From Thermodesulfobacteriota bacterium (lineage in GTDB: Bacteria; Desulfobacterota; Desulfobacteria; Desulfobacterales; Desulfosudaceae): a stretch of DNA of 24,000 nt. Position 1 is the stretch's first letter; the number at the start of each line of letters is the position of its first letter. Made by a program: the position numbers and the translations under genes. Below, piece by piece: positions 1 to 17,817 of the stretch. The stretch lies in assembly GCA_034189905.1 (NCBI GenBank), contig JAXHTY010000022.1, positions 53,795 through 77,794 of the forward strand, read 5' to 3'. The notes under the pieces were generated by a model that saw nothing but the letters and a program-made list of their open reading frames with translations, was not told the DNA's origin and did no database searches.

Positions 1-1026
1 CCCCATATACTCATTTACACCGGCGATGAGGTTCCACCCGGAAAACTGTTCGTCTGTCAGGTCCACCATGATAAAAAAGCCGTGGTTCTGATCGACAAAA
101 TCGCCATATCCGTCAAAATTAAACCCGCTATCATCCAGTTCCACCGAATTCTGGTTGGTATTAAAAACAAACTGCCGAAAGCCTGAACCATTTGCGGGAT
201 TCAAATGAAAAGAAGAGATCTGCCAGTACTGATCAAGAAACATGTCCCGCTGCATCTGGAAAATCCGGTCAACATCATCCGCCCCCATGGTTGTCACAAC
301 GTCATCAGGAAGATTTGTCAGCTGTGAGTTCAGCCAGGCCGATGTGACCAGCGGCCGATTGACTTTTCCATATCCGTAAAGCTTGTTGCTGCCGATAATG
401 AGCCGCCGTAATTCCTGATCCCCCTGACCGAAGTTGGAATACTCGGCCCGAAGAACAATGCCGTACAAACGGACTGGATGATCTTCGTCATACCCCATCT
501 GCAGGCCTTCCCAGTTGACATCCCACTGTGTATATTCAGCGCCGTTGCTGGCACCGAAATTTCGATAAAACCCGGACGAAAGATCGGCATGGAGGTTCAC
601 CTTTTTCCCAAAATATCCTGTGCCGTCTTGCGGATTGGTCCGGCTCTGCGTATAAGCAAGGATATTACTCGAATCTGCAGCCAGCATGGGGCCAAGTTCA
701 CCCGCGTCACGTTCGTAATTACCCAGCCGGAGTTCACTGAACTCACCGTAATTTTCTATATAGATATCACTGGAAAAGCGGACAACTGTTACATTTTCAT
801 TCGTGCCATAGTAACCGGGATCACTGATGTCGATGCTGAGAACCTCCCCGCCCTGAACATCCTGAAGCTGCTTGTCCGTCATCACATCCATGCCGGCATA
901 CAGGTTCGTGGCCATAAGTGAACAGAAGGCAATCCCAACCATGGATGTCCACACAATCACATGTGACAACCGTTGTTGAAGCCCTGTTGCCGGGCAACAG
1001 GAAATAACTTTCAAATAATTAATCAT
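1..1026 (-). CDS. Secreted acidic protein, 5' part only (342 codons; the C-terminus lies beyond the left window edge). A Sec signal peptide is followed by a double-glycine-leader-like motif. Third member of the family encoded at 15713 and 16410.
   Basis: Absent from the ORF track because it has no stop inside the window. Plus-strand triplets 1-3, 4-6 ... 1024-1026 contain no TTA/CTA/TCA, so the minus frame is open from ATG (1026-1024) to position 1. There is an in-frame stop upstream at 1047-1045 and a GGAGG at 1035-1031. My translation begins MINYLKVISCCPATGLQQRLSHVIVWTSMVGIAFCSLMATNLYAGMDVMTDKQLQDVQGGEVLSIDISDPGYYGTNENVTVVRFSSDIYIENYG... A hydrophobic signal-like segment precedes MTDKQLQDVQGG (nt 882-847). 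Track ORFs 330-590(-), 478-921(+) and 528-740(+) lie inside it. Confidence 0.75.
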   Translation of the reverse strand, partial: MINYLKVISCCPATGLQQRLSHVIVWTSMVGIAFCSLMATNLYAGMDVMTDKQLQDVQGGEVLSIDISDPGYYGTNENVTVVRFSSDIYIENYGEFSELRLGNYERDAGELGPMLAADSSNILAYTQSRTNPQDGTGYFGKKVNLHADLSSGFYRNFGASNGAEYTQWDVNWEGLQMGYDEDHPVRLYGIVLRAEYSNFGQGDQELRRLIIGSNKLYGYGKVNRPLVTSAWLNSQLTNLPDDVVTTMGADDVDRIFQMQRDMFLDQYWQISSFHLNPANGSGFRQFVFNTNQNSVELDDSGFNFDGYGDFVDQNHGFFIMVDLTDEQFSGWNLIAGVNEYMG

Positions 1027-1462: not shown

Positions 1463-4063
1463 ATGACAGCAAAGCACCCACCGCAGCATCCCATGACCTT
1501 TGTCTTGATATTCATGGTGTTTGTTCTGACCGGCATTCTGATATATGGCAACACCTTCTCCTCTCCCTTTGTAATGGATGATTACGCCAATATCACAGAA
1601 AACCCTGCCATTCGAATGAACCATTTCACAGTGCAGAAGGTGTTAAAAGCATTGCAATTAACCTCCGCATACCGGCCCCTGCCCTGTTTTTCCTTTGCCC
1701 TGAACTATTTCTTCCATGAATACCGTGTTGCAGGATACCATCTGGTTAATATTGCGATTCATATCGTAACCGGTTTTCTTGTTTTTCTGGTTGCCCGACA
1801 AACCATGCGCTTGTGCGGCATGAGCAGCGCGGTGCCCCCTCTGCTGGCCGCCATGCTCTGGTTCGTAAACCCGGTCCACAATCAGTCTGTAACCTATATT
1901 GTTCAGCGGATGACCAGTATGGCCACAATGTTCTACATGTTGAGCCTGTGGATCTATATAAAAGCCCGTTCTGAGGGTTCGGCAACGCAGAAGCGGTTCC
2001 CTGTCCGCACAGTACTCCTTTCCGCCGCAAGTATTATCGCCGGTATCTGCGCCCTCGGATCAAAACAAATTGCCGCCACCCTGCCGGTAATAATCTTCTT
2101 TTATGAATGGTACTTTTTCAGGAATATTAACAGGACCTGGCTGATACACCGGATAAGGTGGCTGGTTGCGCTTGGCGTTGTTGTTTCCGCCATTGCCCTG
2201 ATCTACCTTGGGACAACCCCGTTTGAAAAAATTCAAAGCATGTATGCGCACCAGAATTTTACCATAACCCAGCGATTATTCACAGAACCCCGGGTTATCC
2301 TCTTCTATCTGGTCCTGATGTTTTACCCCCATCCCGACCTGTTGAGTATTGACCATCATTATCCGATTTCTTATGCCCTTCATCATCCACCCACCACGAT
2401 TGCCGCTCTCATTGCCCTTGCCGGACTTATTTCAGCCGCGATAATTTCAGCCAGAAGAGAAAAGCTTATATCATTTGCCATTATCTGGTTTCTGGGCAAT
2501 CTTGTCATCGAGTCGTCTCTCATCGGCCTGGCCCTGATCTTTCAGCACCGTACCTACCTGCCATTTATTTTTCCGGTGATTACAATCAGCTGGCTTGCGT
2601 TTCAATATCTGCCAGCCCGTAAATACGGGATTCTTCTTTTTTGCGTGGTCATCGGCATTTTCAGTTTGTGGACTTTCCAGCGCAATCAGGTCTGGAAAAA
2701 CCGCTTCACTTTCTGGCAAGATACGGTAGCTAAAGCGCCTTACAATGGCCGGGCAAGAAACGATCTTGGACTGGCACTGATGGATAACGGCAAAATGCAA
2801 GCGGCCATTGCTGAATTAAAAAAAGCCGTGGACACGACACCCGATAATGTGCCTGCCCACAACAATCTGGGTTTGGCATTCACCAGACTCGGACAACTGG
2901 ACAAGGCCATTTCATTCTATGAGAAAGCCCTCAGCCTGGGTCCCGGCCATCCACAGGCATACGCCAATCTCGGAGCAACGCTGCTGATGGACAACAGACC
3001 GGAAGAGGCCATTACAGTTCTAGAGAAAGGGATTCAAGTTGCACCGGATGTCGTGGAAATTCATGACAACCTTGCAAATGCCTACATGCAAGCCAATAAG
3101 CCCGTCAAGGCCAAGCAACACGCTGAAAAAGCGCTCGACCTGATGCCGGGCGATCCTATTGCCCTGAATGTTCTGGGATTAATATTTTCCGATAAGGGCG
3201 ATTATACACAAGCAATACAGTATTTTAAAAGGGCATTGAAGAAAAGCCCGCTTAATCTCAAAAGTAATCTTCACATAGCCAGAATATACATGATGCTGAA
3301 TCAGCCGGTAATGGCGACTCCCTATCTTCAGGCCGTCATTCAGATAAATCCTGCAAACGCATTCGCCCATGGCGAACTGGGCGCCGCGTACGCCCTCTCT
3401 GGAAAGCCCGCCATGGCACTTCGACATCTTCAGAAAGCCATTGAATTAAATCCGGGGGATGCGGTCGCACACTTTAATTTAGGCAATGTATTGACGGCAA
3501 ATGGCAACCTGAAAGACGCATTGGCGCACTATAATGCCGCCCTGGCGATCAACCCCGACTATACGGAAGCCCGGCTGACCTTAGGAAAGGTACTGCTCCA
3601 CCACGGCGACATTGAGGAAGCGACACATCAGTTGGACACATTGACCAACACCAGTAAAGACCCCCAATTACTCTACCGGATCGCAACACTTTATAAAAAA
3701 TATGAGATACTGAATAACGCCGCAACACTCTATGAAAAGGCCATCGACATTGAACCGGCTTTCCCCCAGTGCCTCGACAATCTGGGAAGTACCTACGTCC
3801 GGCTGGGACGCCTTGAAGACGCCGTGCAGGCATACCGGCGCCTAAAAAAGCTGATGCCGGATGCGGCCACGGTGCCTTATAATCTTGCCTGCGTTTATGC
3901 CCTGCAGGGACGAAAAGAAGACGCCGTGGCTGCCATCAAAGAGGCGCGGTCCAAGGGATACAACGATCTACGCCGTCTGTTATCCGACCCTGATCTTGCC
4001 ACCCTTCAGGATACGGAATATTATAAAAAATTGAAAAATGCATGGGAGTCGGGCCTGTTATGA
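1463..4063 (+). CDS. Paralog 1 of 6: polytopic membrane protein with a TMTC/DUF1736-like GT-C glycosyltransferase domain fused to roughly a dozen TPR units (866 aa)
   Basis: Track ORF. The N-terminal ~430 aa are hydrophobic and multi-pass. Motifs present: FVMDD after the first TM helix, AYRPLPCFSFALNYFFH, GYHLVNIAIH, NPVHNQSVTYIVQRMTSMATMFY, SKQIAATLPV, YEWYFF, FYPHP, SFAIIWFLGNLVIESS and FQHRTYLPF. As I recall the eukaryotic TMTC family, these parallel FVFDD...SYRPL...LNY...HPIHTE.V...YLPS. The C-terminal half shows 34-aa TPR periodicity (NNLGLAF, AxxxYxxALxxxP) and ends with the cap YNLACVYALQGRKEDAV...DPDLATLQDTEYYKKL. The CDS call is firm; the function is motif-based. Confidence 0.9.
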   Translation: MTAKHPPQHPMTFVLIFMVFVLTGILIYGNTFSSPFVMDDYANITENPAIRMNHFTVQKVLKALQLTSAYRPLPCFSFALNYFFHEYRVAGYHLVNIAIHIVTGFLVFLVARQTMRLCGMSSAVPPLLAAMLWFVNPVHNQSVTYIVQRMTSMATMFYMLSLWIYIKARSEGSATQKRFPVRTVLLSAASIIAGICALGSKQIAATLPVIIFFYEWYFFRNINRTWLIHRIRWLVALGVVVSAIALIYLGTTPFEKIQSMYAHQNFTITQRLFTEPRVILFYLVLMFYPHPDLLSIDHHYPISYALHHPPTTIAALIALAGLISAAIISARREKLISFAIIWFLGNLVIESSLIGLALIFQHRTYLPFIFPVITISWLAFQYLPARKYGILLFCVVIGIFSLWTFQRNQVWKNRFTFWQDTVAKAPYNGRARNDLGLALMDNGKMQAAIAELKKAVDTTPDNVPAHNNLGLAFTRLGQLDKAISFYEKALSLGPGHPQAYANLGATLLMDNRPEEAITVLEKGIQVAPDVVEIHDNLANAYMQANKPVKAKQHAEKALDLMPGDPIALNVLGLIFSDKGDYTQAIQYFKRALKKSPLNLKSNLHIARIYMMLNQPVMATPYLQAVIQINPANAFAHGELGAAYALSGKPAMALRHLQKAIELNPGDAVAHFNLGNVLTANGNLKDALAHYNAALAINPDYTEARLTLGKVLLHHGDIEEATHQLDTLTNTSKDPQLLYRIATLYKKYEILNNAATLYEKAIDIEPAFPQCLDNLGSTYVRLGRLEDAVQAYRRLKKLMPDAATVPYNLACVYALQGRKEDAVAAIKEARSKGYNDLRRLLSDPDLATLQDTEYYKKLKNAWESGLL

Positions 4064-5898
4064 CAAAGCTTCATAACCATGCGGCCGCTTTGATTACCGC
4101 CCTGGCCATCGCAGTTATCGGCATCCTGGTTTATGCCAACACCTTTCATGCGCCTTTTCTATTTGATGATCATATCAACATTATTGATAATCCACGTATT
4201 CGTATGACAGCATTATCCTTTTCCGGCATTGCCACAGCAGCTAAAAACGAATCCCGTCATCGCCCCCTGCCGAATGTTTCATTTGCATTCAATTACTTTT
4301 TTCACCAATACGATACATCTGGCTATCATATCATCAATCTGATCATCCATCTGACAACCGCATTTCTGATCTTTCTGGTCGCCCGGCACACCCTTCAGCA
4401 ACTGAACCAGGATAGTACAATGACAGCTGCACTTGCGGCCGTTCTCTGGCTGACCAACCCGATTCATACCCAGTCGGTCACCTATATTGTCCAACGCATG
4501 ACATCAATGGCCGCCATGTTCTATATGCTCTCCCTGCTCCTTTATATAAAGGCACGAACAAAACAGTTCAAACAAAATGACTTAACCACCGGCACGGCGA
4601 TCCTGCTTGTGGCATCTGTCTTGTGCGGGATATGTGCACTGACATCCAAACAAATTGCCGCCACTCTCCCGGTATTTGTCTTTCTCTATGAATGGTATTT
4701 TTTTCAAAATTTAGATACGGCCTGGCTGAAACGTCAGGTTTGGTTGCCCATTATCCTTGTCATCACGTTGGCCATTATCATAATGGTCTATCTTGGCAAC
4801 AATCCAATCGACAAAATTCTCAGCATGTATGACAGCCAAGGTTTTTCCATAGGCCAGCGACTGCTCAGCCAACCGGGCGTGGTCCTCTACTATCTTTCTC
4901 TTCTGTTCTTTCCCCATCCCGCCCGACTGAACTTTTATTATGACTTTCCCTTATCCACACTGACGGTCCATCCCGAAGCCACGGTTTTGTCCTTCTTTGG
5001 GATAGCCGGACTGCTGATCACTGCTATGATTGCAGCAAGAAAACAACGACTGGTGTCGTTTGCCATCCTATGGTTTCTGGGCACACTTGTGATTGAATCC
5101 TCCTTTATCGGCCTGGCACTGGTTTTCGAACACCGGACTTACCTGCCCTCAATCTTCCTTTTTATTGCCATTGTACCGGTTTTGATGCAGTTATTGAAAC
5201 ACCGGGAACTGGCCATGATGCTCACAGGCACTGCAATAGTGGTTTGCGGCGTCTGGACCTTCCAGCGTAACAGCATATGGCAGGACGCCGTTCATTTCTG
5301 GCAAAACAACGTTGCCAAATCTCCCCAAATAGCATTACCATACAACAACCTGGGACTGGCTTACAAAAAAGCTGGAAAAACGGAATTGGCGCAACAGGCA
5401 TTTGAAACGGCAATTGAAAAAAACCCCCGGCATTACAGAACATATAACAATCTCGGGCTGTTCTTTATCGACCGGGGGAAACCGGAAGCGGCCATCGATT
5501 ATTTTAATAAAGCCCTCAGCATCTATCCGTTCACTGACATCACGCATATTAATATGGGCAATGCTTTTCTTGCTTTGGAAAAATTTGACAAGGCAATTCA
5601 GCATCTTGAAAAAGCTATTGCAATAAACCCATATTCAGCCGAAGCCTTCAACAGCCTTGGCATTGTTTACCTTAAAACCGGTGACCCGGGAAAAGCAGCA
5701 CATTATTTTCAAAAAGCGATTCAGATCAATCCGTATTACGGGAAAGCCTTTAACAACCTTGGCATTGCTTATTTTTACGCCGGCCAGACAGCAAAAGCCG
5801 TCCGGTATTTTAAAAAAGCCGAAACCGTTGCTCCGAATCAGACGAGTGCAAGTGCCAATCTTGATAAACTCCTAAAGATCAAGGATAGCCCGGAATGA
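4060..5898 (+). CDS. Paralog 2 of 6: GT-C (TMTC-like) membrane domain with about 5 TPR units. It is the shortest member and lacks the C-terminal cap module.
   Basis: The track ORF starts at 4042. I prefer the ATG at 4060 for three reasons. It forms an ATGA overlap with the stop of paralog 1 (4061-4063), the same junction recurs at 5895-5898, and it gives an N-terminal length matching the paralogs. Motifs: FLFDD, RHRPLPNVSFAFNYFFH, NPIHTQSVTYIVQRMTSMAAMFY, SKQIAATLPV, YEWYFF, FFPHP, FEHRTYLPS. TPRs run from PYNNLGLAYKKAG to FNNLGIAYFYAG. Confidence 0.88.
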   Translation: MTKLHNHAAALITALAIAVIGILVYANTFHAPFLFDDHINIIDNPRIRMTALSFSGIATAAKNESRHRPLPNVSFAFNYFFHQYDTSGYHIINLIIHLTTAFLIFLVARHTLQQLNQDSTMTAALAAVLWLTNPIHTQSVTYIVQRMTSMAAMFYMLSLLLYIKARTKQFKQNDLTTGTAILLVASVLCGICALTSKQIAATLPVFVFLYEWYFFQNLDTAWLKRQVWLPIILVITLAIIIMVYLGNNPIDKILSMYDSQGFSIGQRLLSQPGVVLYYLSLLFFPHPARLNFYYDFPLSTLTVHPEATVLSFFGIAGLLITAMIAARKQRLVSFAILWFLGTLVIESSFIGLALVFEHRTYLPSIFLFIAIVPVLMQLLKHRELAMMLTGTAIVVCGVWTFQRNSIWQDAVHFWQNNVAKSPQIALPYNNLGLAYKKAGKTELAQQAFETAIEKNPRHYRTYNNLGLFFIDRGKPEAAIDYFNKALSIYPFTDITHINMGNAFLALEKFDKAIQHLEKAIAINPYSAEAFNSLGIVYLKTGDPGKAAHYFQKAIQINPYYGKAFNNLGIAYFYAGQTAKAVRYFKKAETVAPNQTSASANLDKLLKIKDSPE

Positions 5899-8180
5899 GG
5901 AAGAAAAGACCATTGCATTCAAAAGCACCAATAGCCGCGCTGACCGCTATAATCATAATCGGTATTCTGGTCTATGCCAACACCTTCCATTCCCCTTTTC
6001 TTTTTGACGATAAGCCCAATATTTCAGAAAATCCGCATATCCGGATGACGGATTTATCCTTCTCAGAGATCATGGATGCAACGAGAAGTGTCTCCGGTTA
6101 CCGGCCCCTGCCCAACATCTCTTTTGCCTTCAACTATTATTTCCACCAGTACGACACATTCGGATATCACACCATCAACCTGGCCATTCATTTGGCAACA
6201 GCCTTCCTTCTCTTTCTTGTCGCCAGGCAAACCCTGCAACAACTGAACCAGGAAAGCGCGCTGCTACCCCTGTTGGCCGCCATTCTATGGCTGGTCAACC
6301 CGGTCCACACCCAGTCGGTCACGTATATTGTGCAGCGCATGACATCAATGGCCGCCATGTTCTACCTGTTGTCCCTGTTTCTCTACATAAAGGCCCGGAC
6401 AAACCGGATGAAACAGTCCCGCATGTCCACCGGTATAATAATATTGCTTGTCATGTCTGTCGTGTCGGGGCTATGCGCCTTGGCGTCCAAACAGATCGCC
6501 GCCACTCTGCCGGTATTTATCTTTCTCTATGAATGGTATTTTTTCAGGGATCTCAATATCACCTGGCTCAAGCGCCAGATCAAATGGATCTTCATCCTTT
6601 CCATGGCAATTGTCGTCATCGCCCTGATCTATCTCGGCAAAAGCCCGCTCGAAAAAATCCTTTCCATGTATGACAAGCAAGACTTCTCCATGGGTCAGCG
6701 ACTGCTCAGTGAACCCCGTGTCATTATGCACTATTTGTCACTGCTGTTTTTTCCTCACCCCACCCGGCTTATCATCGACTATGACCTCATTGCCTCCACA
6801 GCATTGCTGAGGCCGGCCACCACGGCCCTTTCGATTGCCGCGCTATCAGGGTTGGTATTCACGGCTTTTGCCACAGCAAAGCGATACCGGCTGTTATCCT
6901 TCGCCATTCTCTGGTTTCTGGGCAACCTCGCCATTGAGTCTTCTTTTATCGGTCTTGCGCTTGTCTTTGAACACCGCACCTACCTGCCGTCAACCTTCCT
7001 GTTTATTGCCATCGTGCCAATAATCACCTACCGTATTCCCCTGCGCGCCATTACCATAGCGCTTTTCTGCTGTCTGATTGCTGTTGGTGGCTACTGGACC
7101 TGGCAACGAAACTACGACTGGAGAGACGCCGTATCCTTCTGGCTGGATTGTACAGAAAAAAGGCCGGATACGGCCCGGGCGTTTAACAATCTTGGCATTG
7201 CTTACAGGAGCACAAATGAATTCAAAAAGGCGCTGCCCGCGTTTCAGACCGCTATTGAAAAAGATCCGACTTTTGAAAGAGCTTACAACAATCTTGGCAT
7301 AATCCTTCGGGATGCCGGGGAAGCCCAATCCGCCATTCCCTATTTTACAAAGGCCTTGGAAATCAACCCCGCATATGCTGATGCCCATTATAACCTGGGG
7401 CTTGCTTTTTATGACAAGGGCATGATTGAAAAAGCGGCAACAGCCTTTCAGACTGCTATCAGGCTGAACCCACTTTATTCGAGAGCTCACAACAACATGG
7501 GCATTATCCGGCAATATCAGGGAAAAACAGAAGAGGCGATGGCTTATTTCCGCAAAGCACTGGATACAAACCCTTATTTTGACAAAGCATACAATAACCT
7601 TGGTATCTCCTTTTACCGAAAAGGAGAGATTGACAAATCAATTCAATGCTTTCAAAAATCACTGGCCATCCACCCGGCATACAGTGATGCCCGAAATAAT
7701 CTGGCCAAAGCAAAAAAACAAGAGGCCCGATACAGTCCGGTAATAAATGAGTTGACCGAGAAGCTGCGGCGATCTCCCGAAAACGATGCCATCGCCTTCA
7801 AACTGGGGCAGGTTTATGAAGAAGCCGGCATGCTGGACGGCGCCATTGACCAATACCGGCAAACCCTGGCAATACAGCCGGACCATGCCGCCTGCCTGTA
7901 CAGACTGGGGAATTTATATGTAAAAACCCGTCAACTTGAAAAAGCCATCGGGCCGATGACGAAACTGACCCGGGTACTGCCGGGAAACCCGGCAGTATTT
8001 TACAACCTTGCCTGCCTTCATGCCAAGCTGGCCGAAAAAGAACAGGCGATTCGGTATTTAAAAACAGCCGTGTCTAAAGGATTTGACAAATGGGATGCGC
8101 TTAAAACGGACAAAGACCTTGAAAATATAAGAAACTCCGAATATTATAGGGATTTGATGAAAAAAATCGGAGAAAATTGA
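5895..8180 (+). CDS. Paralog 3 of 6: GT-C (TMTC-like) membrane domain with about 8 TPR units and the C-terminal cap (761 aa)
   Basis: Track ORF. The ATG at 5895 overlaps the stop of paralog 2 (ATGA). AAGGA lies 9 nt upstream. Motifs: FLFDD, GYRPLPNISFAFNYYFH, NPVHTQSVTYIVQRMTSMAAMFY, FEHRTYLPS. Cap: FYNLACLHAKLAEKEQAIRYLKTAVSKGFDKWDALKTDKDLENIRNSEYY. Confidence 0.9.
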   Translation: MRKKRPLHSKAPIAALTAIIIIGILVYANTFHSPFLFDDKPNISENPHIRMTDLSFSEIMDATRSVSGYRPLPNISFAFNYYFHQYDTFGYHTINLAIHLATAFLLFLVARQTLQQLNQESALLPLLAAILWLVNPVHTQSVTYIVQRMTSMAAMFYLLSLFLYIKARTNRMKQSRMSTGIIILLVMSVVSGLCALASKQIAATLPVFIFLYEWYFFRDLNITWLKRQIKWIFILSMAIVVIALIYLGKSPLEKILSMYDKQDFSMGQRLLSEPRVIMHYLSLLFFPHPTRLIIDYDLIASTALLRPATTALSIAALSGLVFTAFATAKRYRLLSFAILWFLGNLAIESSFIGLALVFEHRTYLPSTFLFIAIVPIITYRIPLRAITIALFCCLIAVGGYWTWQRNYDWRDAVSFWLDCTEKRPDTARAFNNLGIAYRSTNEFKKALPAFQTAIEKDPTFERAYNNLGIILRDAGEAQSAIPYFTKALEINPAYADAHYNLGLAFYDKGMIEKAATAFQTAIRLNPLYSRAHNNMGIIRQYQGKTEEAMAYFRKALDTNPYFDKAYNNLGISFYRKGEIDKSIQCFQKSLAIHPAYSDARNNLAKAKKQEARYSPVINELTEKLRRSPENDAIAFKLGQVYEEAGMLDGAIDQYRQTLAIQPDHAACLYRLGNLYVKTRQLEKAIGPMTKLTRVLPGNPAVFYNLACLHAKLAEKEQAIRYLKTAVSKGFDKWDALKTDKDLENIRNSEYYRDLMKKIGEN

Positions 8181-8229
8181 ACCCGATCCGGCACAAACCG
8201 CAAAAGACAGGAAATAAGCAGAACAGACA

Positions 8230-10611
8230 ATGCCTGAAAACAAAATATTCTCATCCACCCGAGTGCCGTTGTTATGCACAATAGCAATCATTGTCTTGAC
8301 GGGCATCCTGATTTACTCAAATACCTTTGGCGTCCCTTTTGTTTTCGACGATGTGCCGAATATAATCGACAACCCCCATATCCGGATGACCGCCTTAACA
8401 CCGGAACAGCTTGCCGACGCTGTTCAAGGACCTGCAGGCCACCGGCCACTTGCCTACCTTTCCTTTGCATTCAACTACTTTTTCCATGAATATCATGTAT
8501 TCGGGTATCATCTGATAAACCTGATCATTCATCTGATCACCGGGCTGCTGGTTTTTTTAACAGCCCGGCAGACCCTGCGCCTCACAGGCACTGATAATCG
8601 TTTCATTCCGGTATTGGCCGCCGTTCTCTGGCTGGTCAGCCCGGTCCACACCCAGGCCGTCACCTACATTGTTCAACGAATGACGGCCATGGCCACCATG
8701 TTTTATCTGCTGGCCCTGTTCCTTTACATCAAGGCACGGATTATTCAAACCAATACCAAGATGCAGACAAAACGTGCGGCACTCTTCTTTGTTGCAAGCT
8801 TATTGTCCTGGATCTGCGCACTTGGCGCCAAAGAGATCGCCGCGACACTCCCTGTATTTGTTTTTCTATATGAATGGTTCTTTTTTCAGAATTTAGACAC
8901 AGATTGGCTGAGAAGACAGACTGTTTGGATTCTGGGACTCTGTGTGGTTGTGACATTCATTGCTTTTTACTACCTGGGCACCACCCCACTGGAAAGGATC
9001 CTGAAAGTTTATAACTACAGAGATTTCACGCTGGTACAGCGCCTTCTCACAGAGCCCAGAATAGTACTTTATTATCTCTCGCTCCTGGCATTCCCTCATC
9101 CGGGCCGCCTGAACCTGAATTATTATATCAGCGTATCAACATCGCTCATTAACCCCGTTACGACTCTGTTTTCAATCCTCGCCTTGATCGCTTTTTTTGC
9201 TGTTGCCATTATATCGGCCAAAAAAAATCGCCTGCTCTCCTTTGCAATCCTCTGGTACCTGGGTAATCTGGTGATCGAATCCTCCTTTATCGGCCTTGAA
9301 CTCATTTTTGAACACCGCGCATACCTGCCTTCAATCTTTGTGTTTATTGCCACTACCGCCCTGCTGACATCCCGGGACAAAAGGGCTTCTGCCGTAACAC
9401 TACTGTGTGCGCTTATTATTATTTCAGGATTCTGGACATACCAGCGCAACAAAACATGGGCCGATAAAATTTCGTTATGGGGAGACGCTTCAGCAAAAGC
9501 ATCCAGAAATCCAAGGCCGCATAACAACCTGGGTATGGCATTGCAAAAAAAAGGCCTGTATAAACTGGCAATGGAGAAGTACAAAAAAGCCATTTCCGTT
9601 GATCCGACTTATGAAAATGCATACAACAACATGGGGTTTGCCTTGCTTGAAAACGGCTCCCCCGATGAGGCCATTCCTTATTTAATAACCGCCCTGAAGA
9701 TCAGACCCACTTTCAAGGACGCCCACAACAATATTGCGGTAGCTTATCATCGAACCGGTAATACGGAGAAGGCCATTGCACACTGCAAAACGGGCCTTGC
9801 CATTGATCCTGATTTTACCAAAATCAGAAACACGCTTGGTGTCATCTATCTTGGGCAATCGAAACTAAAACAGGCCGCAGACTGTTTTACCACCGTCCTG
9901 AAATCACAACCCGGCTTATTTGAAACCAATATGAACATGGGATTAATCCGACAGAGAGAAAACCGTCCCCAAAAAGCTGCCGATTTTTTCGAAACCGCTG
10001 TTGCCCTGAATCCCAATAGTGTCGAAGCCCATTATCATCTTGGCAGTGTACTTGCCATGTCAGGCGACCTCATCGATGCCCGGCACCATATTGAAGTGGC
10101 GCTCAAGATCAAACCGGACTATCCACAGGCACATAACGCCCTTGGCAATATTCTCTTGAAGCAGGGCGAGATCGATAAGGCAATCACATATTACCAAAAG
10201 GCCCTGCAATATGCGACCGTCTATGCTTCTGCCAGCATCAACCTTGCCAACGCCCTGAGTATGAAGAGGGAATACAATGCGGCCATCGCCAGTCTTAATG
10301 AAGCCCTTCCCCAGGCCCCGGAAAACCCGTCCCTGCTGAGCAAACTCGGCATGCTCTACTCAAAAACAGAGAAATACGATGAGGCAATTGACGTGTTTAA
10401 GACACTGGGCACTGTTCTTCCCGGAAATGCAACCGTTTTCTATAATATTGCCTGTCTTTATGCAAAACAGAACAACACAGAAAAAGCTGTGGAGAACCTG
10501 AAAAAAGCCATTGAAAAAGGTTACGCCAGTATGGAAAGGATAAAAACAGACCCGGATCTCGAAGCCATACGGAATACCGACTATTACAAACAATTGACAT
10601 CACAACGATAG
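8230..10611 (+). CDS. Paralog 4 of 6: GT-C (TMTC-like) membrane domain with a TPR domain and cap (793 aa)
   Basis: Track ORF. Motifs: FVFDD, GHRPLAYLSFAFNYFFH, SPVHTQAVTYIVQRMTAMATMFY, AKEIAATLPV, YEWFFF, FEHRAYLPS. Cap: FYNIACLYAKQNNTEKAVENLKKAIEKGYASMERIKTDPDLEAIRNTDYY. Confidence 0.9.
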   Translation: MPENKIFSSTRVPLLCTIAIIVLTGILIYSNTFGVPFVFDDVPNIIDNPHIRMTALTPEQLADAVQGPAGHRPLAYLSFAFNYFFHEYHVFGYHLINLIIHLITGLLVFLTARQTLRLTGTDNRFIPVLAAVLWLVSPVHTQAVTYIVQRMTAMATMFYLLALFLYIKARIIQTNTKMQTKRAALFFVASLLSWICALGAKEIAATLPVFVFLYEWFFFQNLDTDWLRRQTVWILGLCVVVTFIAFYYLGTTPLERILKVYNYRDFTLVQRLLTEPRIVLYYLSLLAFPHPGRLNLNYYISVSTSLINPVTTLFSILALIAFFAVAIISAKKNRLLSFAILWYLGNLVIESSFIGLELIFEHRAYLPSIFVFIATTALLTSRDKRASAVTLLCALIIISGFWTYQRNKTWADKISLWGDASAKASRNPRPHNNLGMALQKKGLYKLAMEKYKKAISVDPTYENAYNNMGFALLENGSPDEAIPYLITALKIRPTFKDAHNNIAVAYHRTGNTEKAIAHCKTGLAIDPDFTKIRNTLGVIYLGQSKLKQAADCFTTVLKSQPGLFETNMNMGLIRQRENRPQKAADFFETAVALNPNSVEAHYHLGSVLAMSGDLIDARHHIEVALKIKPDYPQAHNALGNILLKQGEIDKAITYYQKALQYATVYASASINLANALSMKREYNAAIASLNEALPQAPENPSLLSKLGMLYSKTEKYDEAIDVFKTLGTVLPGNATVFYNIACLYAKQNNTEKAVENLKKAIEKGYASMERIKTDPDLEAIRNTDYYKQLTSQR

Positions 10612-10687
10612 CCGACATAATAGGCACAGGCATGACAGACCACTGGGACTCTCACGAACTCAACCTGGAACTTTACGGAAGCCACAG

Positions 10688-12991
10688 ATGAACGTAAGGA
10701 AAAGCCATTCCGCCCAATGGCAGATTTTTGTCATCTCCGGCGTTATTATCTTGCTGGGGACTCTGATCTATGCCAACACTTTTCATGTACCATTTATTTT
10801 CGATGATATCCACAATATTAAAGAGAACAGTCTTATCCGACTGACAACGATCACACCGGGAAAAATTCTTCAACTGAAAAACAGCCCTTGTCCGCATCGG
10901 CTCATAGCAAACTTTTCCTTTGCGTTAAATTACTTTTTTCATGATTATAACGTATTCGGGTATCACCTTATAAATCTGATCATCCACCTGATCACCGGTT
11001 TGCTGGTCTTTTTGACTGCCCGGCAGACCCTGCGCCTTACCGGTACCGATGACCGCTTTATTCCGGCATTGGCCGCCGTCCTCTGGCTGGTCAACCCTGT
11101 TCATACGCAGTCGGTCACATACATTGTTCAGCGGATGACAGCCATGGCCACCATGTTCTATCTGCTGGCCCTGTTCCTTTATATTAAGGCGCGGCTGATG
11201 CAGCACGATTTGCCGAAGAAAAAGGCTGCCCACATACTGCTGTTTGCCGGATGCGCCTTAGCCGGCCTGCTGGGGCTGGGCTCAAAAGAAATAGCCGCCA
11301 CGCTGCCGCTGTTTCTGTTTATTTATGAATGGTTTTTTTTTCAGGACCTGAATGGGCAGTGGGTGAAGCAACGACTTTTATGGATTGGCATTGCATGTCT
11401 GGCATTCTTGGCCATTGCCGCCGTCTACCTGGGAACCAGTCCGGTTGAAAAAATCCTGAAAGGTTATGGTCACAGAGACTTTACGCTAGGCCAACGCCTC
11501 CTCACAGAACCAAGGATCATACTTTACTATCTCTCGCTTCTTGTCTTCCCTCACCCGGACCGCCTGAACCTCAATTACGACATCAGTGTCTCCACATCCC
11601 TCATTGATCCTGCTACGACGCTGCTTTCAATTCTTACCCTATCCGGCCTTTTTGTCGTCACCATGGTTGCGGCCCCCAAAAACCGCTTGCTCGCTTTTGC
11701 AATCCTCTGGTTTTTGGGAAACCTGGTTATCGAATCCTCTTTTCTCAGCCTTGAACTCATTTTTGAACACCGTACCTACCTGCCTTCAATATTCATCATT
11801 ATTGTATTAACCACTGCCCTGCTGACATCCTCCCGCATCCGCAATACCGGCATTACAGCATTGTGCGTGACGATAGTTGTCTTCTGTTACTGGACGTATC
11901 AGCGCAATCAGGTTTGGGCCGATAAGGTTTCTCTGTGGAAAAACTGTTCAGACAAAGCGCCGGGGAGCCCAAGGCCATATATTAATATGGCTTCCGCACT
12001 GATGGAATCCGGGGATATGGCCCGGGCCAAAACGCTTTTTCAGAAAGCACTTCAACTCGACCCATCTAACGATGCAGCCCATAAGGAATATGGCCTGCTG
12101 CTCCTTGAAGAGGGTTTTACCGATCAAGCAATTGATCACTTTCGCAAAAGCATCGTCCTGAACCCACGGAATATTGCTGCTTATAATAATCTGGGATATG
12201 CCTTGCTTCGCAAGAACCAAACCCCAAAAGCGATTTCGGCGCTTGAAAAAGCCCGACATTTGAATCCTTACATCCCTGAAGTTCATTATAATCTTGCGAA
12301 AGCCTATCTGCAGAATGATCACACAACAACAACTTTTGACACAGCAGAAAAAGCTTTCCAGGAGGCCATTTCTCTCGATCCTCTCTATTACAAAGCATTT
12401 AACGATCTGGGCGCCTTATATCTTTTAACCGGACAAACAGACAAAGCTGTTCACGTTTTGAACGAGGCCATTCGCATCAATCCCGAGTATGCCCCGGCCC
12501 ATAAGAACATGGCTTTAACACTGAACCGTCAGGGGAACGCTTCCCAGGCACTCCATCATATACTTGAAGCTTGTCGTATTGCCCCGAACATCCCCGGTTT
12601 CCATATAACTGCCGGGGATATGCTGATGACACAGGGGAAAACGGAAGATGCCCAACATCATTACAGCAAAGCATTGTCTCTGGCCGGTGGGTCTCCCCGG
12701 CAAATTCTGCGTATCGGCAATCATTATGCCGGCGCAGGCCTGTATTCACAGGCAGTTCAAGCGTATCAAAAACTGGCCGCCTTAATGCCGGACAATCCCG
12801 CTGTTTTTTATAATCTTGCATGCCTGTATGCAAAACAAAAAAACCCGGAACAGACAATAGCCTATCTTGAAAAGGCCATCAATAATGGATATGATGATGT
12901 GGATCACCTGAAAACCGACAAGGACCTTGAGATTATCAGAAACACGGAATTCTACAAGAACATTCTACATAAATTGCAGGGTCGAAAATAA
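10688..12991 (+). CDS. Paralog 5 of 6: GT-C (TMTC-like) membrane domain with a TPR domain and cap (767 aa)
   Basis: Track ORF. GGAAG lies 6 nt upstream of the ATG. Motifs: FIFDD, PHRLIANFSFALNYFFH, NPVHTQSVTYIVQRMTAMATMFY, SKEIAATLPL, YEWFFF, FEHRTYLPS. Cap: FYNLACLYAKQKNPEQTIAYLEKAINNGYDDVDHLKTDKDLEIIRNTEFY. Confidence 0.9.
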   Translation: MNVRKSHSAQWQIFVISGVIILLGTLIYANTFHVPFIFDDIHNIKENSLIRLTTITPGKILQLKNSPCPHRLIANFSFALNYFFHDYNVFGYHLINLIIHLITGLLVFLTARQTLRLTGTDDRFIPALAAVLWLVNPVHTQSVTYIVQRMTAMATMFYLLALFLYIKARLMQHDLPKKKAAHILLFAGCALAGLLGLGSKEIAATLPLFLFIYEWFFFQDLNGQWVKQRLLWIGIACLAFLAIAAVYLGTSPVEKILKGYGHRDFTLGQRLLTEPRIILYYLSLLVFPHPDRLNLNYDISVSTSLIDPATTLLSILTLSGLFVVTMVAAPKNRLLAFAILWFLGNLVIESSFLSLELIFEHRTYLPSIFIIIVLTTALLTSSRIRNTGITALCVTIVVFCYWTYQRNQVWADKVSLWKNCSDKAPGSPRPYINMASALMESGDMARAKTLFQKALQLDPSNDAAHKEYGLLLLEEGFTDQAIDHFRKSIVLNPRNIAAYNNLGYALLRKNQTPKAISALEKARHLNPYIPEVHYNLAKAYLQNDHTTTTFDTAEKAFQEAISLDPLYYKAFNDLGALYLLTGQTDKAVHVLNEAIRINPEYAPAHKNMALTLNRQGNASQALHHILEACRIAPNIPGFHITAGDMLMTQGKTEDAQHHYSKALSLAGGSPRQILRIGNHYAGAGLYSQAVQAYQKLAALMPDNPAVFYNLACLYAKQKNPEQTIAYLEKAINNGYDDVDHLKTDKDLEIIRNTEFYKNILHKLQGRK

Positions 12992-12993
12992 AA

Positions 12994-15183
12994 ATGCAAA
13001 CGACAAAAACAGATAGCCACTGGCAAACACTTGCCGTACTTGCAGTAATGATTGCCCTCATCATTCTGATTTACGCCAACGCCCTTGACGCGCCCTTTGT
13101 TTTCGACGACATGCCGAATATAGTCGACAATCCTCATTTACGACTGACCGCCTTCACGCCGGAACGGCTTACCGGGGCAATAAAGGGGCCTTCCGGCAAT
13201 CGGCCCTTTGCATTTTTCTCCTTTGCCTTAAATTACTTCTTTCATGGTTATACTGTAAACGGATATCGCCTTGTAAATCTGATTATTCACCTGATAACCG
13301 GAATGCTGGTCTTTTTGACTGCCCGGCAGACCCTGTACCTCACAGGCACTGACAATCGTTTTATTCCTGTATTTGCTGCCGTTCTCTGGCTGTCAAGCCC
13401 CATTCACACCCAGTCGGTCACATACATTGTTCAGCGGATGACAGCCATGGCCACCATGTTTTACCTGCTGGCCATGTTCCTTTATATAAAAACACGGCTG
13501 GTACAGCGCGATTTTCCGGAAAAAAAGACTATCCCGATACTCTTGTTTACCGGATGTGCAGTGGCTGGGATTCTAGGGCTGGGTTCAAAGGAAATAGCCG
13601 CCACGCTACCGCTGTTTCTGCTGCTGTATGAATGGTTCTTTTTCCAGAATCTGAACGGGCAGTGGATGAAACAACGGCTTTTGTGGATTTGTATTGCATG
13701 CGTAGCCATTGTTGCCATTGCCGCCATTTACCTTGGCACAAGCCCGATTGAGAAAATACTTGGTATGTACGATAAGCAAGATTTTACCATGGGCCAACGC
13801 CTGCTCACCCAGCCGGGAGTCGTGCTCTACTATCTGTCCCTTTTGCTGTTCCCCCATCCCGGCCGCCTGAATCTGGATTACGATTTTCCGGTATCAACAC
13901 TTGTGAACCATCCGCTTACGACAGCCCTGACCATCCTTGCTATTGCCGGCCTCCTGATGGGCGCGATTTCCCTGGCCAAAAAACATCGACTCCTCTCATT
14001 TGCCATTCTGTGGTTTCTGGGCACCCTGGTTGTTGAATCATCGTTTTTGGGACTTGCCCTGGTGTTTGAACACCGCATCTACCTGCCTTCGGTATTTGTG
14101 CTGATTGCATTAACCGCTGCCCTGCTAACACCTTCACACTCCCGCCGCGTCGGTATTGCACTATTGTGCACCGCCACTGTTGTCTCTTGTTTCTGGACAT
14201 ACCAGCGAAACCGGATATGGACCGACAGTATTTCACTCTGGAAAGACTGTATCGCCAAAGCACCCGATAATGGACGACCGTACAACGGCCTGGGCGGGGC
14301 GTTTCAGGAAGCCGGGGACTATGAAAAAGCGCAGTTAAACTTTGAAAAAGCCATTCATCTCAACCCTGACGATTACAGGGTGAACAATAACCTGGGGGCC
14401 CTCCTGCTTGGCACCGGTAAACCAATGGACGCGATACCTTATTTTCAGAAAGCCCTGACAATCAACCCTGAATATCATGAGGCCTATTGCAACCTGGGCG
14501 TCGCGCTGGATCGGATAAACCAGCAAGAGGAAGCAATCCGGTCTTTTGAAAAAGCTTTGGCGATCTATCCCGATTATGCCGAGGCCCACAACAACCTCGG
14601 GTCCACTCTGCTGAATACCGGAAAGCCACAGGCGGCAATATTCCACTTTAAAAAAGCCGTCCGTATCAATCCTTTATATCCCGAAGCTTACAGCAACCTC
14701 GGCCTGGCCCTGATGAACCAGAAAAAGGTCGACCAGGCCATCGGATATTATCAAAAATCCCTGAAACTTTCACCGGAATCAGCCAACACCCATTTTAACC
14801 TCGGCTCGGCGTATTTCATGAAAGGCGACATTCCAAAAGCGATCCATCACCTGGAACAATCGGCTGCCATCAACCCCGCTTCCATTCTTGTGCTGAACAA
14901 CCTGTCCACCCTTTATACCATGGACAAGCAGTACGACAAGGCGATTGCAATACTGGACCAAATTGAAGCGCAACTGCCGGCGAACCCTACGGTCCACTAT
15001 AACAAGGCCTGTGTTTACTCGCTGGCCGGTCGTAAAGAGGCTGCTGTCACAAGCCTGGAAAACGCCATCCGCCTCGGCTATAATAAATGGCACCAGATAA
15101 GGACCGATTCCGACCTGGAAAACATACGGGATACAGCCTATTATAAAAAGCTTGAACAAGCAGTACTTTCTTCTTCGCCATAG
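12994..15183 (+). CDS. Paralog 6 of 6: GT-C (TMTC-like) membrane domain with a TPR domain and cap (729 aa); mosaic relative to the other paralogs
   Basis: Track ORF, starting 2 nt after the stop of paralog 5. Motifs: FVFDD, GNRPFAFFSFALNYFFH, SPIHTQSVTYIVQRMTAMATMFY, FEHRIYLPS. Cap: HYNKACVYSLAGRKEAAVTSLENAIRLGYNKWHQIRTDSDLENIRDTAYY. Confidence 0.9.
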   Translation: MQTTKTDSHWQTLAVLAVMIALIILIYANALDAPFVFDDMPNIVDNPHLRLTAFTPERLTGAIKGPSGNRPFAFFSFALNYFFHGYTVNGYRLVNLIIHLITGMLVFLTARQTLYLTGTDNRFIPVFAAVLWLSSPIHTQSVTYIVQRMTAMATMFYLLAMFLYIKTRLVQRDFPEKKTIPILLFTGCAVAGILGLGSKEIAATLPLFLLLYEWFFFQNLNGQWMKQRLLWICIACVAIVAIAAIYLGTSPIEKILGMYDKQDFTMGQRLLTQPGVVLYYLSLLLFPHPGRLNLDYDFPVSTLVNHPLTTALTILAIAGLLMGAISLAKKHRLLSFAILWFLGTLVVESSFLGLALVFEHRIYLPSVFVLIALTAALLTPSHSRRVGIALLCTATVVSCFWTYQRNRIWTDSISLWKDCIAKAPDNGRPYNGLGGAFQEAGDYEKAQLNFEKAIHLNPDDYRVNNNLGALLLGTGKPMDAIPYFQKALTINPEYHEAYCNLGVALDRINQQEEAIRSFEKALAIYPDYAEAHNNLGSTLLNTGKPQAAIFHFKKAVRINPLYPEAYSNLGLALMNQKKVDQAIGYYQKSLKLSPESANTHFNLGSAYFMKGDIPKAIHHLEQSAAINPASILVLNNLSTLYTMDKQYDKAIAILDQIEAQLPANPTVHYNKACVYSLAGRKEAAVTSLENAIRLGYNKWHQIRTDSDLENIRDTAYYKKLEQAVLSSSP

Positions 15184-15591: not shown

Positions 15592-15682
15592 TTAGAGAAA
15601 AAGCCAAACCCCGGGCAACCGGGGGGCGGAAAGCCACGAATCCATAAGGACATTCCCTGTGGAGAGTCGGGCCGCCTCTGGG
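15592..15682 (+). promoter_or_regulatory. Structured 5' leader resembling a c-di-GMP-I (GEMM-I) riboswitch aptamer
   Basis: 15603-15635 reads GCCAAACC CCGG GCAA CCGG GGGGCGGAAAGCC. That is a CAAACC block, a 6-bp GC stem (15609-15614 / 15619-15624) capped by the GNRA tetraloop GCAA, then a CGGAAAGCC block. It has the same length and order as the Vc2 aptamer segment as I remember it (GGCAAACC AUUC GAAA GAGU GGGACGCAAAGCC). A second hairpin follows: CCACG/UGUGG (15634-15638 / 15658-15662) enclosing AAUCC-AUAA-GGAcAUU. An outer pairing is possible between UUUAGAG (15591-15597) and CUCUGGG (15676-15682). Not verified with a covariance model. Confidence 0.45.
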
Positions 15683-15712
15683 AAAAAACCTTAAACCTGG
15701 AGGGAGTAAAAG

Positions 15713-16237
15713 ATGAAAAAATTATTAGTAGCGTTAGTCGTAGGTGCATTAATGGTTCTGCCGATGTCTGCAATGGCTATGGATTCTATTTCAGATGCTG
15801 ATCTCGGCGGCATCACCGGTCAGGCCGGTGTTACCATCGCCTTTGGCGGCAATCAGACCACAGAAGTGACTTTTGACGCCGTATCCTGGGGCGATCCCGA
15901 TGGCATGGGTGGTGCTAACCAGACTGCCGGTTGGGTCATTTTTGACGGCACAATTGGCATCTCCGTAATCATCGCCGACGGTGAGATGCTGACCATTGAC
16001 GTTGCAACAGCTAATGGTGCTGCATACAGCGTTGGCAATGTTACTATTGCTGACGGCACGACCTTTGTCGCCATTGGCCTGCCCAGCCAGACCATCAATG
16101 TGGACACACCGTCTACGCTGGCCATTGGCCTTGGCACCAGCGCGGGTAGCATTGCCGGCACAATCGGTCTGCTGAACCTGGAAAACCTGAGTGTTTCCCC
16201 GGGTACGCCTGACGCGCTCTACATTTACGCACATTAA
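15713..16237 (+). CDS. Small secreted, extremely acidic Gly/Thr/Ala/Ile-rich protein (174 aa) with a Sec signal peptide followed by a double-glycine-leader-like motif; candidate major structural subunit
   Basis: Track ORF. A strong SD, GGAGGGAG (15699-15706), precedes the ATG. Signal peptide: MKKLLVALVVGALMVLPMSAMA | MDS. Motif ISDADLGGITGQ at nt 15788-15823. After the signal peptide there is no Lys, Arg or Cys, against 12 Asp and 3 Glu. Four N-x-S/T sequons are present (NQT, NQT, NVT, NLS). It shares VSWGDPDGMG and a C-terminal LYIYAH strand with the 16410 product (VYWGDADGFG, IYVYES). Confidence 0.9.
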   Translation: MKKLLVALVVGALMVLPMSAMAMDSISDADLGGITGQAGVTIAFGGNQTTEVTFDAVSWGDPDGMGGANQTAGWVIFDGTIGISVIIADGEMLTIDVATANGAAYSVGNVTIADGTTFVAIGLPSQTINVDTPSTLAIGLGTSAGSIAGTIGLLNLENLSVSPGTPDALYIYAH

Positions 16238-16280
16238 TTCAAGTTCTTAATGAATATTATGCGTAATTGCACAAAAATGT

Positions 16281-16318
16281 CCCCTGGAGTGGAATCTCCC
16301 CATTCCAGGGGATTTTTT
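16281..16318 (+). terminator. Rho-independent terminator after the 174-aa gene
   Basis: The stem CCCCTGGA (16281-16288) pairs with TCCAGGGG (16304-16311). It is followed by A and T6 (16312-16318). Confidence 0.8.
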
Positions 16319-16350: not shown

Positions 16351-16409
16351 TAAATACATACAATAAAATGTGGCTATCAGGAGAGGACAGAAATGGAGAA
16401 CATATCAGC

Positions 16410-17749: not shown

Positions 17750-17760
17750 ATTTGGTTAAT

Positions 17761-17777
17761 AGTAAACAATGTTTACT
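17761..17777. promoter_or_regulatory. Perfect 8-bp inverted repeat AGTAAACA-a-TGTTTACT; operator-like site just downstream of the candidate -10
   Basis: AGTAAACA at 17761-17768, A at 17769, TGTTTACT at 17770-17777. It lies 12 nt after the -10 hexamer and 41 nt before the ATG at 17818. Confidence 0.35.
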
Positions 17778-17817
17778 GTTTGATATTGGGGGATCTAAAG
17801 GCAGGAGTCTTCATAAA

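Follow-up and report, generated by a model that had tools for sequence, protein, structure and literature searches.

Six tandem TMTC-like membrane proteins with tetratricopeptide repeat domains in a Thermodesulfobacteriota contig, with different histories for their two halves

Organization of the locus

The window analysed here is a whole stretch of 24,000 nucleotides (nt) of contig JAXHTY010000022.1 (positions 53,795 to 77,794, forward strand) from the Thermodesulfobacteriota bacterium assembly GCA_034189905.1, a metagenome-assembled genome (MAG) of an uncultured bacterium of sulfate-reducer type. It carries an array of six consecutive genes, here called genes 1 to 6 (Table 1), each of which encodes a membrane half joined to a C-terminal half made of tetratricopeptide repeats (TPRs). 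The membrane halves are true homologues of the catalytic domain of the animal proteins TMTC1-4, and the two halves of the array genes have different histories, the latter being the new observation of this work. An earlier note, made from the letters of the DNA, had described six open reading frames (ORFs) on one strand; all six are found, on the plus strand. The junctions it listed were read in the DNA as ATGA overlaps at 4060-4063 and 5895-5898 and as gaps of 49 and 76 nt, and genes 5 and 6 meet as TAA-AA-ATG at 12989-12996, with a 2-nt gap at 12992-12993. Gene 2 starts at the ATG at 4060 (612 amino acids, aa) or at an alternative ATG at 4042 (618 aa). A single transcription unit of six genes is plausible, since no convincing plus-strand terminator was found within the array. 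Chance ORFs are not an issue, because the frames are long and intact and have thousands of database homologues. An NCBI protein (P0001) labelled 'MAG: Thermodesulfobacteriota bacterium' agrees with gene 6 at every residue (100% identity), and genes 1 and 2 are matched by database entries of 856 aa (P0121) and 612 aa (P0004). Antisense ORFs on the minus strand (e.g. 6990-7514 and 9123-9593) were considered as real genes and rejected, as they lie wholly inside conserved coding sequence.

In the alignment of the six proteins the mean column identity is 69% over the first ~420 aa, and the motif blocks and aspartate pair (DD) singled out by the earlier note are invariant or nearly so. The TPR part varies as had been described, from 196 aa in gene 2 to 446 aa in gene 1, which fits ~5-6 to 13 repeats, and the C-terminal cap is missing from gene 2 alone. 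The cap corresponds to a match to Pfam PF22316, a TPR-like helical module, which is above cutoff in genes 3 and 4; TPR families of Pfam are also matched in the array proteins. Gene 1 diverges most from the rest; it has PVHNQ and QHR instead of PVHTQ and EHR.

Table 1. Features of the window, the array genes first; positions are counted from the first letter of the window.
Feature	Position	Strand	Description
Gene 1	1463-4063	+	866 aa; membrane GT-C domain ~1463-2722; ~13 TPR repeats and cap 2723-4060
Gene 2	4060-5898	+	612 aa; membrane domain 4060-5307; short TPR part 5308-5895; without C-terminal cap
Gene 3	5895-8180	+	761 aa; membrane domain 5895-7148; TPR and cap 7149-8177
Gene 4	8230-10611	+	793 aa; membrane domain 8230-9486; TPR and cap 9487-10608
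Gene 5	10688-12991	+	767 aa; membrane domain 10688-11944; TPR and cap 11945-12988
Gene 6	12994-15183	+	729 aa; membrane domain 12994-14247; TPR and cap 14248-15180
c-di-GMP-I-GGC riboswitch aptamer	15594-15680	+	Leader of the DUF6160 gene; Rfam RF03167, 60.3 bits (gathering 59), E-value 4.8e-14, full-length
Secreted acidic DUF6160 protein	15713-16237	+	174 aa; Pfam PF19657, E-value 2.7e-9
DUF6160-like acidic protein	16368-17408	+	
C39-like peptidase, stand-alone	17752-18576	+	Pfam match
SPOR-plus-barrel protein	18622-20289	+	Pfam match
FadL-like outer-membrane protein	20331-22070	+	Pfam match
PD40 beta-propeller	22095-23768	+	Pfam match
Secreted acidic protein, isoelectric point (pI) 4.3	1-1026	-	Divergent; open frame that runs off the window start

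Classification of the membrane half

The membrane domains of TMTC1-4, as aligned in supplementary file 2 of PMC7801869, were turned into a hidden Markov model (HMM), which matches all six array proteins, with 89.8 bits for gene 1, 96.7 for gene 2, 102.9 for gene 3, 99.4 for gene 4, 87.5 for gene 5 and 82.6 for gene 6. In the other direction the bacterial HMM matches 12 of 12 TMTC sequences (E-values 4e-20 to 6e-36), and hhalign aligns the bacterial and TMTC profiles with 99.9% probability and an E-value of 3.8e-32 over 377 columns, nearly the full length of the domain. With reversed sequences as controls, the scores were at most 4.7 bits and, in hhalign, 0.1% probability. The AlphaFold model of full-length gene 2 (mean predicted local distance difference test, pLDDT, 91) has 11 long helices before residue 408, followed by a solenoid of 12 TPR-type helices. 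The odd number of helices and the homology to TMTC would place the N-terminus in the cytoplasm and the TPRs in the periplasm.

Foldseek searches with the full-length model were swamped by TPR proteins, and the membrane half of gene 2 was therefore modelled alone (pLDDT 89.5, predicted template modelling score 0.91). Its top 17 matches in the PDB, with probabilities of 0.87-1.0, are GT-C glycosyltransferases (AglB, STT3, PglB, Pmt4, Pmt1/2, EmbA/B/C, AftD and ArnT), the sole exception being a chain of the glycosylphosphatidylinositol (GPI) transamidase (8imx_U); beneath these stand unrelated transporters at a probability of ~0.1. The query template modelling score reaches 0.52, and the E-values are modest (2e-3 and weaker). 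The fusion of a TMTC-like GT-C domain with TPRs proposed in the earlier note is thus borne out by the TMTC HMM, by hhalign and by the structural search with the membrane half. The refuting test named there, placement of the membrane domain in a non-glycosyltransferase family, was run, and the domain came out as GT-C/TMTC. Pfam gave no match to the PMT and MIR domains in the array proteins and none to DUF2723 in any of 61 family members, a search of NCBIfam with single membrane halves yielded nothing usable, and a profile of the six membrane halves found no match among PDB sequences.

Motifs and catalytic residues

Residue conservation was counted over the 61 family members. Invariant in all of them are D36, D37, R68, Q138, R146, K197, P285, E346-S347-S348, H358, R359 and Y361, of which D36/D37 align to the DD pair of TMTC (motif M1). 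The array was read against the seven motifs described for TMTC (PMC7801869). Of motif M2 (SHKSYRP) RP alone is retained, whereas M4 (KE(T/Q)xxT) becomes K(E/Q)IAAT with K and T kept, and M7 (ERxxY) becomes EHRxY with R shifted by one position. The D of DW in M5 aligns to the first D of a stretch, LDYD, that is typical of the family and whose acidic residues are D in 47 and 50 of the 61 relatives. Gene 4 departs from it at window positions 9094-9129 (residues 289-300, PHPGRLNLNYYI), where LDYD is replaced by LNLNYY and both acidic residues are gone. The region of the DUF1736 loop is aligned by hhalign, but the DNPA signature is absent.

Mosaic history of the two halves

Pairwise identity among the six genes is 48-66% for the membrane halves and 31-44% for the TPR halves, and the catalytic halves are in this sense more conserved, as had been claimed. 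The best match of a membrane half is always an array-mate (~65% for genes 2 and 3, 4 and 5, and 5 and 6; 52% for gene 1 to gene 4), with external proteins reaching at most 57% identity. The TPR halves find their best matches in other genomes: at 49% for gene 3 (P0154), 46-48% for gene 6 (P0008/P0092) and 45-46% for gene 5 (P0009). Neighbour-joining trees show the same disagreement. Genes 4, 5 and 6 group together in 98% of bootstraps of the membrane tree and in 1% of those of the TPR tree, and genes 2 and 3 in 98% and 8%, respectively. The TPR half of gene 5 has an external nearest neighbour (P0009 or P0048) in 100 of 100 bootstraps, and its membrane half is sister to gene 6.

Codon usage at identical residues differs between the halves as well. 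Among genes 4, 5 and 6, compared in pairs, a shared residue has the same codon in a fraction of 0.55-0.58 for the membrane halves and 0.38-0.40 for the TPR halves, the latter equal to what codon usage predicts (null 0.36-0.39; p-values 7e-4 to 1e-2); genes 2 and 3 show no such difference between halves. The results point to catalytic halves that may have been homogenised by gene conversion or module exchange within the array. Since the TPR halves are closer to other genomes and the catalytic halves cluster within the array, the TPR types would predate the similarity that the catalytic halves now show. The pattern of conserved catalytic and diversified TPR domains described in the earlier note is therefore real, but it is not one of simple divergence after duplication, as the closest relatives of the two halves disagree.

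The protein that carries the TPR type of gene 5, P0009, is encoded in other assemblies by a lone TMTC-like gene beside pheST/rplT/infC. At loci L161 (1544-3655) and L162 (991-3102) it lies between a racemase-like gene and merR/pheT/pheS/rplT, showing that members of the TMTC-like family also occur in housekeeping neighbourhoods. The three-gene array L013 (595-7675) is also mosaic: its copies 1 and 2 share membrane halves of 74% identity, the TPR half of copy 1 is closest (69%) to that of copy 3, and the membrane half of copy 3 is 96% identical to an unrelated database protein, P0042. L017 and L024 show no such mosaic.

Family abundance and other arrays

A profile of the six sequences retrieves 68,146 clusters (at 50% identity) with E-values of 1e-3 or below and 12,648 at 1e-30 or below. 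Source databases label the relatives 'tetratricopeptide repeat protein' or 'protein O-mannosyl-transferase'; the latter label, from JGI and one NCBI submitter, is annotation only. The existence of prokaryotic TMTC homologues has been noted before (PMC7801869). The gene type is thus very common in bacteria. L numbers denote loci outside the window; the best 80 loci with TMTC-like genes in species-representative genomes come nearly all from Desulfobacterota MAGs, and in Desulfobacterota a genome often carries several copies. Other tandem arrays have four copies (L002 and L080) or three (L013, L017 and L045), several loci have two, and one MAG has at least nine copies on four contigs. The six-fold expansion had been called unusual: it is the largest array found, but arrays of three to four and genomes with at least nine copies exist elsewhere, and the array is a large example of a common habit rather than a new kind of thing.

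Neighbouring genes and the putative donor

In L080 and L038 a 241-aa GT2 glycosyltransferase and a DUF2304 membrane protein are encoded directly upstream of the TMTC-like genes, and in L080 their stop and start codons overlap. This pairing occurs in two of the 80 loci and GT2 relatives in 17. Such neighbours are supportive of a putative polyprenyl-phosphate-sugar donor, the kind to be expected for GT-C enzymes, but GT2 genes are common. At L080 (3028-18435) an acyltransferase_3 gene comes first, then GT2 (241 aa), DUF2304 (127 aa) and a GT2-like gene. Four TMTC-like genes follow them, and after these a gene for a 1126-aa protein that joins a major facilitator superfamily (MFS) transporter to a spermine/spermidine-synthase-like domain and TPRs. 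The trio of GT2, DUF2304 and GT2-like genes is also found in L038, close to the TMTC-like gene there.

Flanking genes and riboswitch

Downstream of the array, a c-di-GMP-I-GGC riboswitch aptamer (c-di-GMP, cyclic di-GMP) precedes a DUF6160 gene. In the predicted fold the 3' strand of its P1 helix (CCUCUGG) pairs with the GGAGGG Shine-Dalgarno region (~15675-15706), which suggests that the DUF6160 gene may be under translational control by the riboswitch. To our knowledge, the ligand of the GGC variant is not established, and the literature searched for DUF6160 and for this variant held no functional data. With a promoter-like site upstream of the riboswitch and a strong terminator-like hairpin (16279-16313) 3' of the gene, the DUF6160 gene probably forms a separately regulated unit. 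The order DUF6160, C39, SPOR-barrel, FadL and PD40 recurs in L023, L144, L150, L153, L154 and L160, mostly without TMTC-like genes; the downstream genes are an autonomous, widely conserved module that usually occurs without these enzymes. The module, on which no report was found in the literature searched, may be an export or assembly system for DUF6160 proteins. Upstream of the array, the N-terminus of the divergent acidic protein (MTDKQLQDVQGGEVLSIDI) is weakly like the DUF6160 motif (E-value 0.17, under threshold). A strong sigma-70-like site lies on the minus strand at 1137-1110 (TTGACA, 16-nt spacer, TATATT, with TG), and no riboswitch was found upstream of this divergent gene.

DUF6160 loci were collected by scanning metagenome contigs with a DUF6160 alignment, and those of at least 8 kb are here called long. 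A riboswitch of the c-di-GMP-I type (RF03167 or RF01051) stands directly upstream of DUF6160 in L080 (18883-18961), L023 (8359-8441, minus strand) and L129 (2013-2074). L129 is the one case among 20 further DUF6160 loci scanned, the other 19 having none. Four DUF6160 proteins were compared: that of the window (15713-16237) and those of L080 (19001-19645), L023 (7576-8316, minus strand) and L019 (17024-18025, minus strand). All have a signal peptide, an N-terminal motif (S/T)-D-x-(D/E/N)-(L/M)-x-x-(I/V/L)-T-G-Q-(A/S)-G-V-(S/T)-I, a C-terminus of (A/P)-H, almost no lysine or arginine (1.1% in the window protein) and ~27% glycine plus alanine.

Interpretation

The explanation preferred here, held with moderate confidence, is that the array encodes six paralogous inner-membrane transferases of the TMTC type with GT-C fold, that their periplasmic TPRs choose the clients, and that the array is a mosaic. 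Beyond a TMTC-type GT-C transferase with periplasmic TPRs, the function is one that we infer. Each protein would have a catalytic domain of 11 helices, whose first periplasmic loop bears the invariant DD, and, attached to it, a TPR domain that also lies in the periplasm. Judged by homology, the reaction would take place on the periplasmic side of the membrane: one sugar unit would pass from a polyprenyl-phosphate-sugar donor to an acceptor bound by the TPR domain, most likely to serine or threonine (Ser/Thr) of exported proteins, and the various TPR types would each have clients of their own. The TPR modules would be older types shared with other genomes, and the catalytic halves would have been kept similar by gene conversion or module exchange.

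Several results weigh against this explanation. Neither the six genes nor the 61 family members match DUF1736, at E-values up to 10, or Pfam PMT_2. The sole Pfam match of the membrane half, DUF6056, is under threshold (gene 2, 19.6-20 bits, E-value 3-4e-4, gathering 27); precomputed matches to this family (PF19528) are present on some relatives. The periplasmic orientation is deduced from homology and helix counting, and the charge bias of the short loops is weak, with lysine plus arginine at 6/33 inside versus 2/30 outside. Motif M3, HPIHTEAV...GRAD in TMTC, reads NP(V/I)HTQSVTYIVQRM(T/N), with R retained and D replaced by T or N. Of the positions aligned to modelled TMTC metal ligands, the one in M4 is Q in genes 1-3 (in the family E 52 times and Q nine times), and at the one in M5 genes 1, 3 and 6 have D, genes 4 and 5 have N and gene 2 has Y (D in 47 of 61 in the family). 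The chemistry, or the binding of metal or donor, may not be alike in all copies, and some may be inactive. The earlier claim that all paralogs keep the same chemistry is likely to hold for the core, whose invariant residues are present in all six, but these ligand-aligned positions vary. No donor-synthesis gene was found in the window, and a conserved operon partner sought among the 80 immediate neighbours of family members gave a heterogeneous set of genes. The TPR alignments are noisy and error-prone. Near-identical DNA tracts between the copies were sought and none found; any gene conversion was therefore not recent. The literature searched gave no characterised bacterial member, with no activity, donor or acceptor reported, in line with the statement of the earlier note on substrates.

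Non-protein acceptors form a possible but unlikely alternative. The enzymes would then add sugars to a glycan or lipid (for instance lipopolysaccharide, exopolysaccharide or some other polymer of the envelope), in the manner of ArnT, EmbC and AftD, and the TPRs would bind partner proteins instead of clients. ArnT, Emb and AftD do stand among the structural neighbours beside the protein glycosyltransferases, the L080 array is embedded among polysaccharide-type genes (GT4, acyltransferase_3 and GT2), and no acceptor is known. By sequence, however, the array proteins stand far nearer to the TMTCs, a group of protein O-mannosyltransferases, than to any other relatives, and a variable TPR fusion whose types are conserved across genomes fits the choice of protein clients.

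It is quite unlikely that the array glycosylates the flanking DUF6160 secreted proteins, as a dedicated set of enzymes for modifying a fibre or matrix protein under cyclic-dinucleotide control. The array has DUF6160-type genes immediately downstream and perhaps another upstream, and the two largest arrays with known flanks (six genes in the window, four in L080) both have a riboswitch and DUF6160 downstream, although their glycosyltransferase genes are only distantly related; L023, L144 and L019 also pair such a gene with DUF6160. Against this, DUF6160 is found in three of ~40 long loci of TMTC-like glycosyltransferases and a TMTC-like gene in two of 18 long DUF6160 loci, which is near the level that chance might produce with abundant paralogues. 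The DUF6160 gene moreover has a promoter-like site, riboswitch and terminator of its own, and the module recurs intact without any such glycosyltransferase. The neighbours, described in the earlier note as Ser/Thr-rich and acidic, are indeed acidic (pI 4.05-4.08), but their Ser/Thr content is modest (14.5-17%). Its view of them as the obvious acceptors is not upheld, given the autonomy of the module and the rarity of the pairing. Still broader, and distinctly improbable, is the picture of a bacterial protein O-glycosylation 'specificity battery', in which six TMTC-type enzymes use one lipid-linked donor chemistry that is kept uniform by gene conversion, six ancient and distinct TPR modules each select clients, and the clients include the flanking secreted DUF6160 proteins under riboswitch (cyclic-dinucleotide) control.

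That some copies (genes 2, 4 and 5, or genes 1-3) are non-enzymes that no longer bind metal or donor and act as TPR scaffolds or regulatory partners of the active copies, like subunits of heteromeric eukaryotic GT-C enzymes, is very unlikely. The minority residues at the ligand-aligned positions of M4 (genes 1-3) and M5 (genes 2, 4 and 5) and the loss of both LDYD acidic residues in gene 4 would agree with it, but the six ORFs are intact and full-length, none has lost a residue that all 61 members share (among them DD, R68, K197, ESS and HR-x-Y), and the metal-ligand roles of the variable M4 and M5 positions come from homology models of TMTC and not from experiment (PMC7801869). An assembly artefact by chimeric joining of paralogues in the metagenome bin is extremely unlikely: the contig comes from a MAG and repeated genes are prone to misassembly, but nucleotide identity between copies is mostly 0.4-0.88 without near-identical tracts, too low to mislead an assembler, the six frames are intact with precise ATGA junctions, and similar arrays exist in the independent assemblies L002, L013, L017, L045 and L080.

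The preferred explanation, six TMTC-type transferases with client-choosing TPRs, bears on a wider question, as client choice by TMTC is unresolved in animals and bacteria hold tens of thousands of uncharacterised relatives. One catalytic scaffold combined with six old and distinct TPR modules would amount to a natural experiment in client selection, and the recurring GT2-DUF2304 partners of L080 and L038 suggest a donor pathway that lends itself to reconstitution in Escherichia coli. Were the improbable 'specificity battery' true, it would be the first bacterial O-glycosylation system of the TMTC type and would offer a natural model of substrate selection by the TPRs of TMTC enzymes. Practical use is limited, as the organism is uncultured and represented by a MAG and as the link to any acceptor is weak.

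Comparison with known systems

The PMT/POMT enzymes (GT39, fungal and actinobacterial) and ArnT (GT83) share with the array proteins the GT-C(A) fold and an acidic pair, or a single aspartate, in the first of the external loops; they use a lipid-phosphate-sugar as donor, as is predicted for the array. The array proteins differ from them by having no MIR domain and no PMT or PMT_2 match, and identity in structural alignments is 12-14%; ArnT, in addition, acts on lipid A. The GT2 and DUF2304 genes of L080 and L038 match the logic of synthase, accessory protein and GT-C enzyme seen in GtrA/GtrB/GtrX and in ArnC/ArnEF/ArnT. The mycobacterial PpgS-Rv3632-Rv3779 set is another three-component system of lipid-linked glycosylation. 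Unlike these systems, the array has no synthase or accessory genes in the window. TMEM260, with DUF2723 (GT117), has 11 transmembrane helices followed by C-terminal TPR-like repeats (PMC10214176). It has bacterial homologues, and the array shares its general design, but the array proteins have no DUF2723 match and their sequence kinship is to TMTC.

The closest comparison is with animal TMTC1-4 (CAZy GT105), the protein O-mannosyltransferases of the endoplasmic reticulum that act on cadherins and protocadherins. As in the array proteins, their GT-C domain of 11 helices precedes TPRs that face away from the cytoplasm, an orientation that for the array is predicted by homology. Shared motifs are DD in loop 1, the RP of M2, (H/N)P(I/V)HT(E/Q).V....R, K(E/Q)xxxT and an M7 of the type E..R.Y(L/M)PS. 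The array is bacterial, so its donor would have to be a bacterial polyprenyl-phosphate-sugar and not dolichyl-phosphate-mannose. The DUF1736 signature, which in human TMTCs lies in the loop between transmembrane helices 7 and 8 and is matched with E < 1e-30 (PMC7801869), finds no match in the array; DNPA and 'SHKS' are likewise absent, the D of RxD is T or N, and the D of DW is present in three of six copies. The array family, for its part, has invariant E-S-S and H-R motifs of its own.

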